DNA of 64,000 bases from Escherichia coli (GTDB lineage: Bacteria; Pseudomonadota; Gammaproteobacteria; Enterobacterales; Enterobacteriaceae), in the NCBI RefSeq assembly GCF_003790525.1, contig NZ_CP033635.1; one strand, written 5' to 3'. Within the stretch, counting starts at the first letter, position 1. Every line of letters starts with the position of its first letter. Positions 52,401 to 58,400 of this stretch are shown here, piece after piece. Position numbers: made by a program.

Positions 52401-55400
52401 AAGCCTTGCAGTCCCTGATAGGCCGGTTCATCAATACGCGAAGAAATAACCGGGCGCGGCAACGTTGATTGGCTCTGCCCCTGCTGCGCGGCACCGTTTT
52501 CACCATTCGCGGTTTCATTAAGCGGGATGAGGTTGTCAAGATTCAGTTGCGGGAATTGCAGTCTCAGCTGCCATTCAGGTTTCTCTGTCAGCGTGACCTG
52601 TGCTTGCCCGCTCAGCGTGCTGTCATTGGCGGTCAAGCTGATTTGGTTAAATGAAAGGCGTTTATGTGACTCCTGCCACTGGGCCTGGAAACTCCCCTGC
52701 CCCTGAATACCTTGTTTTGGTAAATCGGCACCCTGCAACTGCCAGTTAATTTGTTCAATAGCCGCCGTTAAATCATGCGGATAATCAGAAGCATCCACCG
52801 TACCGTTAAGGGATATTGTGAGATTGCGCTGATCGCGATTAACCCGCCCGGAGAACTCAAATGAGCCACGATGTTGGGGATCTTGTTCCATTTGCAGGCG
52901 GATATTGCGGATTGTCACCTGCTCGTCATCTTCATGCTGGAACACCAGCACGCTGTCCGCCACCTTAAGACTGGATATATCAAACGACCATCCGCGATCG
53001 TCTGACAGATCCGGCAAGGTATTGTCGCGCGGTGCAACCGGAGCGTCTTCACTGCGCACCGCTTCCGTCTGCGGCGTCAGTTGGATCACTGCCCCTTTTA
53101 GCATCACCTGCTTAACGCTCAGTTGATGACTCAGTAGTGGTAAAAGCGCCACGTCCAGACGCATGTTGTCGGCGCGAACCAGTGGCTGGCTTGCGCCCTG
53201 GGCGGTGAGAGACATTCGCCCGGAGAGGATACTAAGCTGCGGCCAGACGTGCCAACGCAGTGGCCCGTCGAGCTGCAATTGATAACCGCTACGTGCAGCA
53301 ACTTGCTTGACCATATAGTCGCGGAAATCATTCGGATTCACCAGCAACACTAACGCAGATAACCCGGCCACCAGCACGACCAGGAGTATCATCAGCGTCG
53401 TCAGAAATCGTCTCATGGTATCCTCAATGGGCCTGAATTAGTCTTTATCGATTCGGCTGGCTACCGCGCCCTGCTGGTTGCGATATTTCGCATCTTCACG
53501 GCGGTTGTAAGGTCGCGCCGCCGGGCCGGAAAGCGGCTCAAAGCTCAGCGCACCAATTAACATGCCCGGACGCAGCGCCAGCGGCAGCTTACCGGAGTTG
53601 TAGAACTCCAGCACAATGCAGCCAGACCAGCCCGGATCGATGCGGTGCGCGGTGACGTGCACCATAAGCCCCAGACGCGCCAAAGAGGAACGCCCGTCCA
53701 GCCAGCCCACCAGATCGGCTGGCAGCGTCACCGACTCCAGCGTCACCGCCAGCGCCAGCTCTCCTGGGTGAAGATAGAACGCCTCGCCCTCGTCGAGAAC
53801 GATCTCATCGCTCATCACGCGGTCAAGCGCGGCGCTCACTTCATCTTTGGGACCGCTCAGATCGATAAACGCTGCCGTGTGACCACGGAAGGTACGAAAT
53901 TTATTGCCCAGGCGTACATCCACCGTCGCGCCGTTAATACGCTCCACTGGCGGACGTGGGTTGATCGACAAACGGCCTTCATCAAGCCAGGCTTCAATAT
54001 CTCGGTCACACAGACGCATGGCATTTTCTCCTTTCGCGCATCACTCCCTTAACGCCAATTACGTCAAGGGCATACCAGGTTATCACTGAACGGTACACAA
54101 TTTATCAAGCTTATTCAAAGAACTGACTTATTTTCGCTTTCAATATATCGATCGCGATGCGGTTTTTCCCGCCGCGCGGCACGATAATGTCCGCATATTG
54201 TTTAGAAGGCTCAATGAATTGCAGGAACATCGGGCGCACGGTTTTTTGATATTGCGCCATCACTGAATCCATTGAACGTCCACGCTCGTTAACGTCACGC
54301 TTGATGCGGCGCATCAGGCAGATATCCAGCGGGGTATCAACGAAAATGGAGAAGTTAAGTTCGTCACGCAAACGCGCATCCGTCAGCAACAAAATGCCTT
54401 CGAGAATGATGACCTTCTTCGGCTCAACCGTCACCGTTTCTTTCATACGCGTATGTTCAACATAGCTGTAAACCGGCAGGTCAATTGCCGAGCCGCGTTT
54501 CAACGCTTGTAAATGCTCAAGCAGCAGGCTGTGATCCATCGCGCTGGGATGGTCGTAGTTGGTCTTAACGCGTTCTTCCATCGACAGATGGCTTTGATCT
54601 TTGTAATAGCAGTCTTCGGGAATTACGCCGATGTGTTCATCACCGACTTGCTCACGTAATTCACGATAAAGGGTACTGGCAATAAGACTCTTGCCGGAAG
54701 CCGATGCGCCAGCGATACCGATAATGACGCACTGATGAGACTGATCAGTCATATATTTAGCGACCTGATTAACCTGGATGTTAGGAAGGGGGCGACGAAG
54801 CGCCAAACGCGGCAATTATAGGGATTTCATCCGCCTGATACCAGTCGAATAGCGTTGCCGCGCGCTCAGAGTTAATTGTTGACGAAGAATTCCCGGTGGC
54901 AAATTACGTTGATCAGTTTTATACAAGGTAAAAAATGTTATACGCAGTTGCGCAAATTATCCGCCTTTACGTCACTTTATGAGCAATTCGCATATAAAAT
55001 GTAAAACTTTTGTACTAGCATAAACACAGAAACGAATACTGGCGACCTGGTCTTGCAGATAAAGCGGTAATGAGCAAACAATCACAGCATGTATTAATTG
55101 CCCTGCCCCACCCGCTGCTTCACCTGGTCAGTTTAGGTTTAGTCTCGTTTATCTTTACCCTTTTCTCGCTTGAGCTTTCGCAGTTTGGCACCCAACTCGC
55201 CCCACTGTGGTTCCCGACGTCCATCATGATGGTGGCGTTTTATCGCCATGCCGGGCGCATGTGGCCGGGAATTGCGCTGAGCTGTTCGCTGGGAAATATC
55301 GCCGCATCCATCCTGCTTTTTTCCACCAGCTCGCTGAACATGACCTGGACGACCATCAATATTGTTGAAGCCGTGGTCGGGGCAGTGCTGCTACGTAAAT

Positions 55401-58400
55401 TGCTGCCGTGGTATAACCCCTTGCAAAATCTGGCTGACTGGCTGCGTCTGGCACTCGGCAGCGCCATTGTTCCACCTCTGTTGGGGGGTGTTCTGGTTGT
55501 CCTGCTGACGCCCGGAGACGATCCTCTCAGGGCATTTTTGATATGGGTACTGTCAGAATCCATCGGCGCTCTGGCACTGGTGCCGCTGGGATTGTTATTT
55601 AAACCACACTATCTGCTGCGCCATCGCAACCCACGGTTGCTTTTTGAGTCGCTGCTCACATTAGCCATCACACTGACGTTAAGCTGGCTTTCGATGCTGT
55701 ATCTGCCGTGGCCTTTTACTTTCATTATTGTGCTGTTGATGTGGAGCGCCGTGCGCCTGCCACGAATGGAAGCCTTTTTGATCTTCCTTACCACGGTGAT
55801 GATGGTGTCGCTGATGATGGCCGCGGATCCCTCCCTGCTTGCTACGCCGCGTACGTACCTGATGACCCATATGCCGTGGCTACCGTTTTTGCTGATCCTG
55901 CTGCCCGCCAACATCATGACGATGGTGATGTATGCCTTTCGTGCGGAACGCAAACACATTTCCGAAAGCGAAACCCGTTTTCGGAACGCGATGGAATATT
56001 CCGCCATCGGCATGGCATTAGTGGGCACCGAGGGACAATGGCTGCAATCCAACAAAGCACTCTGCCAGTTTCTCGGTTACAGTCAGGAAGAGCTGCGCGG
56101 ACTCACCTTTCAGCAACTGACCTGGCCGGAGGATCTCAATAAAGATCTCCAACAGGTTGAAAAGCTGATAAGCGGTGAAATAAACACCTATTCAATGGAA
56201 AAACGTTACTACAACCGCAATGGCGATGTTGTCTGGGCGTTGCTTGCCGTCTCACTGGTGCGCCACACGGATGGCACGCCGCTCTATTTTATCGCTCAGA
56301 TTGAAGACATTAACGAGCTAAAACGCACCGAACAGGTGAATCAGCAACTGATGGAACGCATCACGCTGGCTAACGAAGCGGGCGGGATTGGCATCTGGGA
56401 GTGGGAGTTGAAGCCGAATATTTTTAGCTGGGATAAGCGGATGTTCGAGCTGTATGAAATTCCTCCGCATATCAAACCGAACTGGCAGGTGTGGTACGAG
56501 TGCGTGCTGCCGGAAGATCGCCAGCATGCCGAAAAAGTGATTCGTGATTCGTTGCAATCACGCTCGCCCTTTAAGCTGGAATTTCGCATTGCCGTGAAAG
56601 ATGGCATCCGCCATATCCGCGCCCTCGCCAACCGGGTACTGAATAAAGAAGGCGAAGTCGAACGCCTGCTCGGCATTAATATGGATATGACTGAGGTTAA
56701 ACAGCTTAACGAGGCATTGTTTCAGGAAAAAGAGCGCCTGCACATTACGCTTGATTCCATCGGTGAAGCCGTGGTCTGTATTGATATGGCGATGAAAATT
56801 ACCTTTATGAATCCAGTGGCGGAGAAGATGAGCGGCTGGACGCAGGAAGAAGCGTTAGGTGTTCCGCTCCTGACGGTGTTGCATATTACTTTTGGCGACA
56901 ACGGACCATTAATGGAGAACATTTACAGTGCCGACACCTCACGTTCCGCGATCGAACAAGATGTGGTGTTGCACTGTCGGAGCGGCGGCAGTTACGACGT
57001 GCATTACAGTATTACGCCGTTAAGTACTCTGGACGGCAGCAATATTGGTTCGGTTCTGGTGATTCAGGACGTTACCGAATCACGCAAAATGCTGCGCCAG
57101 CTGAGCTACAGCGCCTCCCATGATGCACTGACGCATCTCGCCAACCGCGCCAGTTTTGAGAAACAACTGCGTATCCTGCTGCAAACGGTAAACAGTACGC
57201 ATCAGCGACATGCACTGGTGTTTATCGATCTTGATCGCTTTAAAGCGGTGAATGACAGCGCCGGGCATGCGGCGGGCGACGCTTTGCTGCGCGAACTGGC
57301 GTCGTTGATGCTGAGTATGCTGCGCTCCAGTGACGTGCTGGCGCGGCTCGGCGGTGATGAATTTGGTCTGCTGCTGCCAGACTGCAATGTTGAAAGCGCT
57401 CGTTTTATCGCTACACGTATTATCAGTGCTGTGAATGACTATCACTTTATATGGGAAGGCCGTGTGCATCGGGTAGGTGCCAGTGCCGGGATTACCTTGA
57501 TTGATGACAACAATCATCAGGCGGCAGAAGTGATGTCGCAGGCTGATATCGCCTGTTATGCCTCCAAAAATGGTGGCCGGGGCCGGGTGACGGTTTACGA
57601 ACCGCAGCAAGCTGCCGCACATAGCGAACGGGCGGCGATGTCGCTTGATGAACAGTGGCGGATGATTAAAGAGAATCAGTTGATGATGCTCGCCCACGGT
57701 GTCGCTTCGCCACGGATCCCGGAAGCGCGTAATTTGTGGCTGATTTCACTTAAGCTCTGGAGTTGCGAAGGCGAGATTATTGATGAACAAACATTTCGTC
57801 GTAGCTTCAGCGATCCGGCGCTTAGCCATGCTCTTGACCGCCGGGTATTCCACGAATTTTTCCAGCAGGCCGCAAAAGCGGTTGCCAGTAAAGGCATAAG
57901 CATCTCCCTCCCCCTTTCCGTTGCCGGTTTGAGTAGCGCCACGCTGGTGAATGATCTGCTTGAGCAGCTGGAAAATAGCCCTCTACCACCACGGTTATTA
58001 CATCTGATTATTCCGGCTGAAGCGATTTTAGATCACGCAGAAAGCGTGCAAAAACTGCGGCTGGCGGGATGTCGGATAGTGCTCAGCCAGGTGGGCCGCG
58101 ATCTGCAAATCTTCAACTCGCTGAAAGCGAATATGGCAGATTACCTGCTACTTGATGGTGAGTTATGCGCCAACGTGCAGGGTAATTTGATGGATGAGAT
58201 GCTGATTACGATTATTCAGGGGCACGCTCAGCGACTCGGGATGAAAACCATCGCCGGGCCAGTCGTTTTACCCTTAGTGATGGATACGCTTTCTGGCATC
58301 GGCGTCGATCTGATTTATGGTGAGGTGATTGCCGATGCCCAACCGCTGGATTTGCTGGTGAATAGCAGTTATTTCGCGATTAACTGAGGGAGCGTTTGCC

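Follow-up and report, generated by a model that had tools for sequence, protein, structure and literature searches.

The diguanylate cyclase DgcE of Escherichia coli K-12 heads the c-di-GMP cascade for curli and cellulose in E. coli biofilms, and its gene is for that reason biologically important. It is also an ordinary and well-studied gene, whose architecture and inhibitory, degenerate EAL domain (EALdeg) have already been published (PMC6510439). Genetic work in K-12 showed that the membrane domain MASE1, in which ten transmembrane segments were counted, is where the dynamin-like GTPase RdcA docks together with its partner RdcB, that MASE1 determines the proteolytic turnover of DgcE, which is a substrate of continuous, processive N-to-C proteolysis, and that the PAS region dimerises (PMC6510439). 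Exchange of two residues in the GGDEF motif (D763A/E764A, giving GGAAF) resulted in a null phenotype equal to that of a deletion, while deletion of EALdeg resulted in gain-of-function and altered both the oligomer state and the protein level, indicating that this domain is inhibitory in vivo (PMC6510439). The authors found essentially all c-di-GMP-binding and metal-binding residues to be absent from EALdeg, and ascribed the effect of its deletion to oligomerisation, not hydrolysis (PMC6510439). Full-length DgcE is degraded too fast for purification (PMC6510439), which is why the mechanism has been worked out from genetics and two-hybrid data. In a delta-dgcE strain the c-di-GMP level is very low, and a 2026 study reported that DgcE activity goes up when the membrane potential falls (PMC13031359).

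We analyzed a 64-kb window of E. coli DNA, the whole stretch under study, in which a single plus-strand open reading frame at 55070-58387, with an ATG start, encodes an 1105-aa protein. The translation is free of internal stops, and the opposite strand is rich in them. A sequence-only reading of the window had named this ORF DgcE, and both the name and the extent of the gene held: the DNA matches dgcE as annotated in E. coli E308 and in other complete genomes at 100% identity, RefSeq labels it dgcE, and the product is identical to K-12 MG1655 DgcE (b2067; NP_416571.1) at 1101 of 1105 residues (99.6%), with 98.6% identity at the DNA level. Against the curated NCBIfam equivalog model NF007298 / PRK09776 the protein scored 2070.4 bits (cut-off 1135), with residues 1-1105 aligned to profile positions 1-1111, a match far beyond chance for an ORF of this length. 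The neighbors follow the K-12 order, with asmA-dcd-udk on one side and alkA-yegD-yegI on the other; rdcA and rdcB both lie outside the window. The score, the identity to K-12 and the synteny together place the protein in this orthologue group. Nearly all complete E. coli genomes (5416 of 5426) contain dgcE. We did consider whether the window came from strain E308 itself, given the identical dgcE, and rejected this because identity is only ~98% in the flanks and the two differ in the O-antigen region.

The divergent intergenic region between udk and dgcE presumably holds the dgcE promoter; a simple sigma-70 scan of the plus strand upstream of dgcE found no sigma-70-like promoter. A simple terminator scan likewise gave nothing in the interval separating dgcE from the convergent alkA, an Rfam search of window positions 50000-64000 returned no family at gathering score, and the matches from a repeat search across dgcE were all short and no more than chance would produce.

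Table 1. Features of the dgcE locus, in window coordinates, with the evidence for each.
Feature	Coordinates	Strand	Evidence
udk-dgcE divergent intergenic region	54753..55069		annotated udk end at window 54752
dgcE (yegE) CDS, 1105 codons + stop	55070..58387	+	ORF; DNA and protein identity; NF007298
MASE1 membrane domain, aa 19-294	55124..55951	+	Pfam PF05231 and hydropathy
PAS domain 1, aa 303-416	55976..56317	+	Pfam PAS_9, PAS_3, PAS, PAS_4
PAS domain 2, aa about 452-537	56423..56680	+	Pfam PAS_3
PAS domain 3, aa 555-672	56732..57085	+	Pfam PAS_4, PAS, PAS_9, PAS_8
GGDEF (diguanylate cyclase) domain, aa 682-838	57113..57583	+	Pfam PF00990
Degenerate EAL domain (EALdeg), fold ~aa 859-1098	57644..58363	+	Pfam PF00563, AlphaFold2, Foldseek
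Pfam EAL match, aa 898-1088	57761..58333	+	PF00563
Conserved C-terminal tail LVNSSYFAIN, aa 1096-1105	58355..58384	+	orthologue conservation

Six domains follow one another in the protein, in the order MASE1, PAS, PAS, PAS, GGDEF and EALdeg, and each had a Pfam match above its gathering score. MASE1 matched PF05231 over essentially its full length (profile positions 2-298 of 299) at 124-129 bits (cut-off 29.8), and in a Kyte-Doolittle plot residues 8-290 contained about 9-10 hydrophobic segments, a combination that marks the region as a MASE1 sensor. The PAS region resolved into three separate segments, each above a PAS-clan cut-off when scanned alone: the first matched PAS_9, PAS_3, PAS and PAS_4, the second matched PAS_3 at 44.5 bits (cut-off 25.6), and the third matched PAS_4 at 47.7 bits (cut-off 23.1) as well as PAS, PAS_9 and PAS_8. 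The TIGR00229 sensory_box model also matched three stretches over the whole protein. A full-length AlphaFold2 model built from a 16-orthologue alignment had a mean pLDDT of 40.9 and a pTM of 0.30, and was unusable for counting transmembrane helices or for judging how the domains pack.

The GGDEF domain aligned to the entire length of PF00990 at 156-161 bits (cut-off 23.8). The stretch LARLGGDEFG occupies residues 757-766, with the GGDEF motif itself at 761-765 (window 57350-57364), and its motif residues are invariant across 16 orthologues. Five residues before the motif lies an RxxD site, RSSD, running from R752 to D755 (57323-57334); the regular expression R..D.{5}GG[DE]EF matched at residue 752. 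Residues D720, N728, D737, K833 and R837, which we take to be GTP- and Mg-binding from established knowledge of PleD-type cyclases, do not vary among the 16 orthologues and align with identical residues in the GGDEF domain of RbdA/PA0861, the closest solved relative of this domain (E 6e-44). With its complete active-site motif and RxxD site, the domain is predicted to be an active cyclase, and c-di-GMP synthesis is supported by the genetics described above.

The C-terminal domain presents the opposite picture. PF00563 matched at 76-81 bits against a cut-off of 31.3, over profile positions 38/39-234 of 236, so that the match starts beyond the site of the EAL motif. There is no EAL tripeptide within the EAL domain, the only literal occurrences in the protein falling in the PAS region (residues 548 and 594), and regular-expression searches of the whole protein found no DDFG, EGVE or QG[YFW] motif. 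HMM alignment and hhalign agreed on what has replaced the catalytic residues: P948 in place of N, I980 and A983 in place of the ExxE pair, S1006 and Q1007 in place of DD, L1027 in place of K, G1063 and V1066 at the site of EGVE, and Y1083 in place of Q. When compared with the active phosphodiesterases PdeL, PdeH, PdeK, PdeR and DosP, DgcE kept 6 of the 25 columns that are invariant among them, and none of the six is catalytic. Alignment to the RbdA EAL domain gave the same substitutions, and 15 orthologues, drawn from six other genera (Citrobacter, Salmonella, Enterobacter, Kosakonia, Lelliottia and Yokenella), share the degeneracy.

The N-terminal third of the domain, with the EAL motif and the Arg that follows it, aligned with low confidence, and the local HMM left that third unaligned. 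In the best register, which was set by the W897 anchor together with a low-confidence global hhalign alignment, the EAL tripeptide corresponds to I-S-L at 892-894 and the next Arg to L896. No register offers a Glu-x-Leu in this area. A plain MAFFT alignment of the DgcE EAL domain with the five active phosphodiesterases was discarded, its N-terminal third disagreeing with the HMM, hhalign and phmmer-to-FimX placements.

These results bear on whether DgcE might be bifunctional, with a working c-di-GMP phosphodiesterase that uses non-canonical residues, such that the protein both makes and breaks c-di-GMP. The EAL fold is complete, and the closest solved GGDEF-EAL tandem, that of RbdA/PA0861, has been grouped with PAS-GGDEF-EAL phosphodiesterases (PMC6510439). 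Against this stand nine positions (P948, I980, A983, S1006, Q1007, L1027, G1063, V1066 and Y1083) whose side chains are unable to bind metal, the same replacements in all 15 orthologues, and the higher output that follows deletion of the domain, which was put down to oligomerisation rather than to hydrolysis (PMC6510439). We regard a bifunctional DgcE as extremely improbable. The domain keeps its fold and has lost all of the metal-binding and catalytic residues that can be aligned, and as judged from these residues it should be unable to hydrolyse c-di-GMP. We did not class DgcE as a phosphodiesterase because the catalytic and metal-binding set of EAL enzymes is missing from it.

Here again the sequence-only reading fared well. 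It had described an N-terminal sensor region with multiple transmembrane segments, PAS-like repeats, an intact GGDEF motif within LARLGGDEFG and an EAL-like C-terminus lacking an exact EAL motif, and had suspected an inactive phosphodiesterase. The Pfam annotation and the alignment to active EAL domains that it proposed as checks bore out each of these points: MASE1, PAS, GGDEF and EAL all scored above gathering thresholds, and every catalytic position alignable to the five active E. coli enzymes is substituted, leaving no conserved catalytic set.

An AlphaFold2 model of EALdeg was of good quality (pLDDT 88, pTM 0.84). Foldseek found 103 PDB matches at E<=1e-3, and all 50 of those listed are EAL domains, with query-normalised TM scores of 0.67-0.81 among these 50; the best-matching solved EAL domains reached 0.75-0.81, with E values down to 2e-16. 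Receptor-type EAL domains, those of FimX and LapD (4fou, E 2e-16; 3pju), are among the best PDB matches by sequence and by fold, and one might suppose from this, and from the inhibitory effect of EALdeg in vivo (PMC6510439), that the domain acts as a nucleotide receptor that binds c-di-GMP (or pGpG or GTP) uncleaved and feeds back on the cyclase. Also in its favor, K895, which is R in most orthologues, adjoins the position of the phosphate-binding Arg, and the register there is uncertain. Against it, the Arg position itself, the LapD equivalent of which (R450) lies at the center of the c-di-GMP site, falls on L896 in the low-confidence best register, and this Leu is invariant in the 16 orthologues; in the same register the QP pair is replaced by S880-P881, c-di-GMP-binding and metal-binding residues are essentially all gone (PMC6510439), and product feedback is already provided for by the RxxD site of the GGDEF domain. 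Receptor function therefore seems to us unlikely.

We also asked how the domain has evolved. EALdeg is the least conserved part of DgcE, with a mean identity to orthologues of 65% compared with 76-84% in the other domains. Its dN/dS within E. coli is 0.34, versus 0-0.05 for other regions, and of the 19 amino-acid differences between the window allele and an ST131 allele, 16 fall within it. Such figures are what would be expected if the EAL-like region were a functionless evolutionary remnant drifting to loss. However, reading frame and length are maintained in 109 orthologues, 35% of EALdeg columns are invariant across seven genera, dN/dS is well below 1, the fold is confidently predicted, and the C-terminal tail is highly conserved. 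The clear phenotype of the deletion, with its changes in oligomer state and protein level, largely refutes drift toward loss (PMC6510439), which we consider very improbable. EALdeg has evolved at several times the rate of the remainder of DgcE, yet it is still constrained. Its fold, its invariant columns, its dN/dS and the gain-of-function on deletion indicate that it is retained and not decaying.

The last ten residues, LVNSSYFAIN, are the best conserved block of 10-15 aa in the EALdeg region (0.93 in 109 orthologues), and in the 16-sequence alignment N1098, S1100, F1102, A1103, I1104 and N1105 are invariant. The last 4 residues of the protein were modeled with pLDDT below 50. It is conceivable, if rather doubtful, that the dead EAL domain keeps a specific binding function, directed at a small ligand in what used to be the active-site pocket or at a partner protein, and that the conserved, apparently unstructured tail N-x-S-Y-F-A-I-N serves in docking or regulation as a motif that switches inhibition on and off.

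Taken together, our analysis identifies the feature, with a probability of roughly 97%, as the chromosomal E. coli gene dgcE (yegE, b2067), encoding the "master" diguanylate cyclase with an active GGDEF domain and a dead, inhibitory EAL domain. K-12 DgcE is 1105 aa long and encoded at the same locus, and its GGDEF and EALdeg domains are identical to those of the window protein. The two proteins differ at four sites in MASE1 and PAS1/PAS2 (window/K-12: T266/S, R303/H, S327/T and A508/T), and at one of these the window residue, R303, is present in all 15 orthologues. Because only these four residues differ, none of them in GGDEF or EALdeg, we infer the same mechanism for the window protein. RdcA and RdcB, together with membrane potential, would provide the signal input, with RdcA, accompanied by RdcB, docking on the membrane-embedded MASE1 domain. 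Dimerisation through the PAS region would pair two GGDEF domains, each with one GTP, to form c-di-GMP, and EALdeg would inhibit, probably via a dimerisation that hinders productive oligomers. The c-di-GMP made by DgcE would then relieve PdeR inhibition of DgcM/MlrA, turning on csgD, curli and pEtN-cellulose.

The window adds nothing new on the mechanism of dgcE and confirms the published degenerate, inhibitory EAL domain. The small additions are that the degeneracy is common to all orthologues examined, that EALdeg evolves faster and is nonetheless constrained, and that the last ten residues are unusually conserved.

Among other known systems, P. aeruginosa RbdA (PA0861; PDB 5xgb, 8pps) has the same PAS-GGDEF-EAL tandem, and the comparison with DgcE covers that part only, the solved construct being a PAS-GGDEF-EAL fragment. 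For the DgcE EAL domain, too, no solved relative is closer than RbdA (8pps, E 2.5e-7; Foldseek TM 0.78), but in a residue-by-residue alignment the N, E..E, DD, K, E.VE and Q that DgcE has lost are all present in the RbdA EAL domain. FimX and LapD (PDB 4fou, 3hv8, 3pju), the top fold matches among those listed, resemble DgcE in having a catalytically dead, regulatory C-terminal EAL domain in a GGDEF-EAL tandem. They are binders of c-di-GMP and retain the Arg that follows the EAL motif, where DgcE has L896 in the low-confidence best register, and the degenerate partner in them is the GGDEF domain, whereas that of DgcE is active. The E. coli proteins PdeA and PdeF (MASE1-GGDEFdeg-EAL) share with DgcE an N-terminal MASE1 domain and a GGDEF-EAL tandem of which one half is degenerate, and PdeA shows a similar proteolytic ladder (PMC6510439). 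The literature does not describe them with three PAS domains, and their polarity is opposite to that of DgcE, with an active EAL domain and a degenerate GGDEF domain (PMC6510439).

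The ORF listing placed a single long open reading frame at window positions 55070 to 58387 on the + strand, beginning with ATG and running for 1105 codons, exactly where the sequence-only reading had put a DgcE of 1105 aa. Its translation was uninterrupted, and stops were abundant on the reverse strand. The product matched DgcE of K-12 MG1655 (b2067) at 1101 of 1105 residues (99.6%), the four differences (T266S, R303H, S327T and A508T, window residue first and K-12 residue second) falling in MASE1 and PAS1/PAS2. Along its whole length it matched the NCBIfam equivalog NF007298 with 2070 bits (cut-off 1135), and the neighbours were those of K-12, with asmA, dcd and udk upstream/divergent and alkA, yegD, yegI and yegJ downstream. 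The K-12 match, the equivalog and the neighbourhood all support the name proposed earlier. By megablast, the gene was present in 5,416 of 5,426 complete E. coli genomes, nearly always as a single chromosomal copy, and several genomes carried it at 100% identity, all with the annotation "dgcE: diguanylate cyclase". The reading frame is dgcE (previously named yegE), a core gene of E. coli that is already known in detail.

Alleles at least 99% identical to that of the window occurred in 190 of 5418 matching records. Ten of the 5426 genomes had no match, 16 more had less than 80% of the gene, and 3 of 5425 matching places were on plasmid-labelled records. Strain 35 (NZ_CP172867.1, locus 4001-6091) is a natural knockout in which IS1A cuts dgcE after about nt 1124, leaving only the MASE1 part; the same IS1A also took out most of alkA. 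Compared with the ST131 strain 4224, the GGDEF segment of the window allele had a dS of 0.29. This is 2-5 times the value in the other domains and hints that the gene may have a mosaic or recombinant history. Strain E308, whose dgcE is 100% identical in DNA, showed one mismatch in 54000-58499 (dgcE and the upstream region), while the flanks (49071-62730) were only about 98% identical, so the window belongs to another strain with the same dgcE allele. Inside asmA (51563..53416, - strand) there was a local burst of divergence at 51500-52500, with 34 and 58 mismatches per 500 bp versus E308 and 31 and 55 versus K-12, against 0-15 in the surroundings; this looks like an imported recombinant segment. 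An intact 648-aa ORF for yegI, a putative Ser/Thr kinase, lies at 60835-62781 (- strand); the copies in E308 (internal stop) and strain 35 (frameshift) carry pseudogene annotations, and yegJ (62981-63442, + strand) is present as in K-12 and absent from E308. Megablast aligned neither 18167-24080 nor 24926-26290 with the O88-type O-antigen cluster (galF-gnd) of E308, from which the O-antigen gene cluster of the window evidently differs.

Each Pfam domain of DgcE exceeded its gathering score and was found again when its segment was scanned alone. Hydropathy gave about 9-10 hydrophobic segments in residues 8-290, where ten have been counted in the literature (PMC6510439). The proposed multi-spanning N-terminus, PAS repeats and EAL-like C-terminus were thus recovered by profile searches and hydropathy, and exactly the same six-domain architecture was described by Pfiffer et al. 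in 2019 (PMC6510439).

Domains of DgcE and residues found at canonical EAL positions
Feature	DgcE residues	Remark
MASE1	19-294	Pfam, nearly whole profile
PAS 1	303-416	Pfam
PAS 2	about 452-537	Pfam
PAS 3	555-672	Pfam
GGDEF	682-838	Pfam, full profile
EAL	898-1088	Pfam, match begins only at profile position 38-39
Canonical N	P948	EAL domain
Canonical E..E	I980 / A983	EAL domain
Canonical DDFGTG	S1006-Q1007-V-G-R-D	EAL domain
Canonical K of KxD	L1027	EAL domain
Canonical EGVE	G1063-P-V-V1066	EAL domain
Canonical QG	Y1083-G	EAL domain

The GGDEF motif, which had been called intact, occupies residues 761-765 within the string LARLGGDEFG (757-766), and RSSD (752-755) fits the RxxD inhibitory-site pattern at the canonical distance before it. 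The residues of both motifs, together with D720, N728, D737, K833 and R837, were invariant in an alignment of 16 sequences (DgcE and 15 orthologues from six other genera) and identical in RbdA, a Pseudomonas aeruginosa PAS-GGDEF-EAL protein whose GGDEF domain was the closest solved one (E 6e-44). The GTP/Mg-binding roles of GGDEF-domain residues are established for PleD-type cyclases. The cyclase half of DgcE is predicted to be intact.

We aligned the C-terminus to the EAL domains of five active K-12 phosphodiesterases (PdeL, PdeH, PdeK, PdeR and DosP) by MAFFT, with an HMM built from the five, and by profile-profile comparison. The three methods agreed from the conserved Asn onward, and a phmmer alignment with the RbdA EAL domain gave the identical set of substitutions. 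Of 25 columns without variation among the active enzymes, DgcE retained only 6, none of them catalytic. The N-terminal third of the domain was too divergent for the HMM; there, a W897 anchor and global hhalign, at low confidence, aligned L-x-R-W with L894-K895-L896-W897, QP with S880-P881, and the motif Glu of EAL with I892 or a short deletion. A search for E-[AVLI]-L throughout the domain found none, in keeping with the earlier remark that no exact motif was visible. As no metal ligand remains, a bifunctional DgcE, with the EAL domain as a working phosphodiesterase, is excluded to the extent that sequence evidence allows. The suspicion of an inactive domain was therefore well placed: with its catalytic set substituted, the phosphodiesterase half is predicted to be dead.

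Orthologues at 73-82% identity came from Citrobacter, Salmonella, Enterobacter, Lelliottia, Kosakonia and Yokenella, and in all 15 examined the catalytic positions were occupied by the same non-catalytic residues as in DgcE. The degeneracy is therefore older than the split of these genera. In the 16-sequence alignment the degenerate domain (EALdeg) was the least conserved, with 65% mean identity versus 76-84% for the others and 35% invariant columns. Between the window and ST131 alleles, 16 of 19 amino-acid differences fell in residues 841-1105 (linker and EALdeg; window 57590-58384), where dN/dS was 0.34 versus 0-0.05 in other domains. Together, the invariant columns and this ratio indicate that purifying selection on EALdeg is relaxed yet real. 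Conservation was highest at about residues 1036-1080 and in the final ten, LVNSSYFAIN (1096-1105, window 58355-58384), the top block of the domain (mean conservation 0.93 in 109 orthologues). N1098, S1100, F1102, A1103, I1104 and N1105 were invariant across seven genera, and the last four residues were predicted to be unstructured in an AlphaFold2 model despite this conservation. We found no role described for the tail in the literature on DgcE. A Flag tag at the C-terminus of K-12 DgcE had no phenotypic effect (PMC6510439), so the protein does not need its C-terminal end to be free.

In K-12, essentially all c-di-GMP-binding, metal-binding and catalytic residues of the EAL domain are absent, a GGDEF to GGAAF mutant is equivalent to a deletion, and DgcE lacking MASE1 or the PAS region is phenotypically null (PMC6510439). 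Deletion of EALdeg yields a hyperactive pathway with more protein and permits higher oligomers (PMC6510439). This phenotype, like the conservation of EALdeg, contradicts the view that the domain is a functionless remnant. Dimerisation is seen for the PAS region and for EALdeg, and not for GGDEF alone; MASE1 confers continuous N-to-C proteolysis and is the docking site of the GTPase RdcA with RdcB, whose activation of DgcE depends on GTP hydrolysis and possibly reports the drop in GTP at stationary-phase entry (PMC6510439). DgcE, RdcA and RdcB were confirmed in 2026 as the main positive determinants of the c-di-GMP level (PMC13031359). Given 99.6% identity to K-12 DgcE, the window allele would be expected to follow these published steps.

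An AlphaFold2 model of residues 841-1105 from 48 aligned sequences (mean pLDDT 88, pTM 0.84) had 103 Foldseek matches in the PDB at E<=1e-3, with EAL domains making up all 50 of those listed. The listed matches included the active enzymes RocR (3sy8, TM 0.81), TBD1265 (2r6o) and MorA as well as the receptor-type degenerate domains of FimX (4fou, E 2e-16) and LapD (3pju). The model predicts that DgcE retains the EAL fold. A c-di-GMP receptor of the FimX/LapD kind could be argued from the weakness of the alignment in the N-terminal part of EALdeg and from the basic K/R895 adjoining L896. In the best register, however, the position of R450, the central arginine of the c-di-GMP site in LapD, is a leucine (L896) in DgcE and all 15 orthologues, and because of this difference from LapD a receptor role is unlikely.
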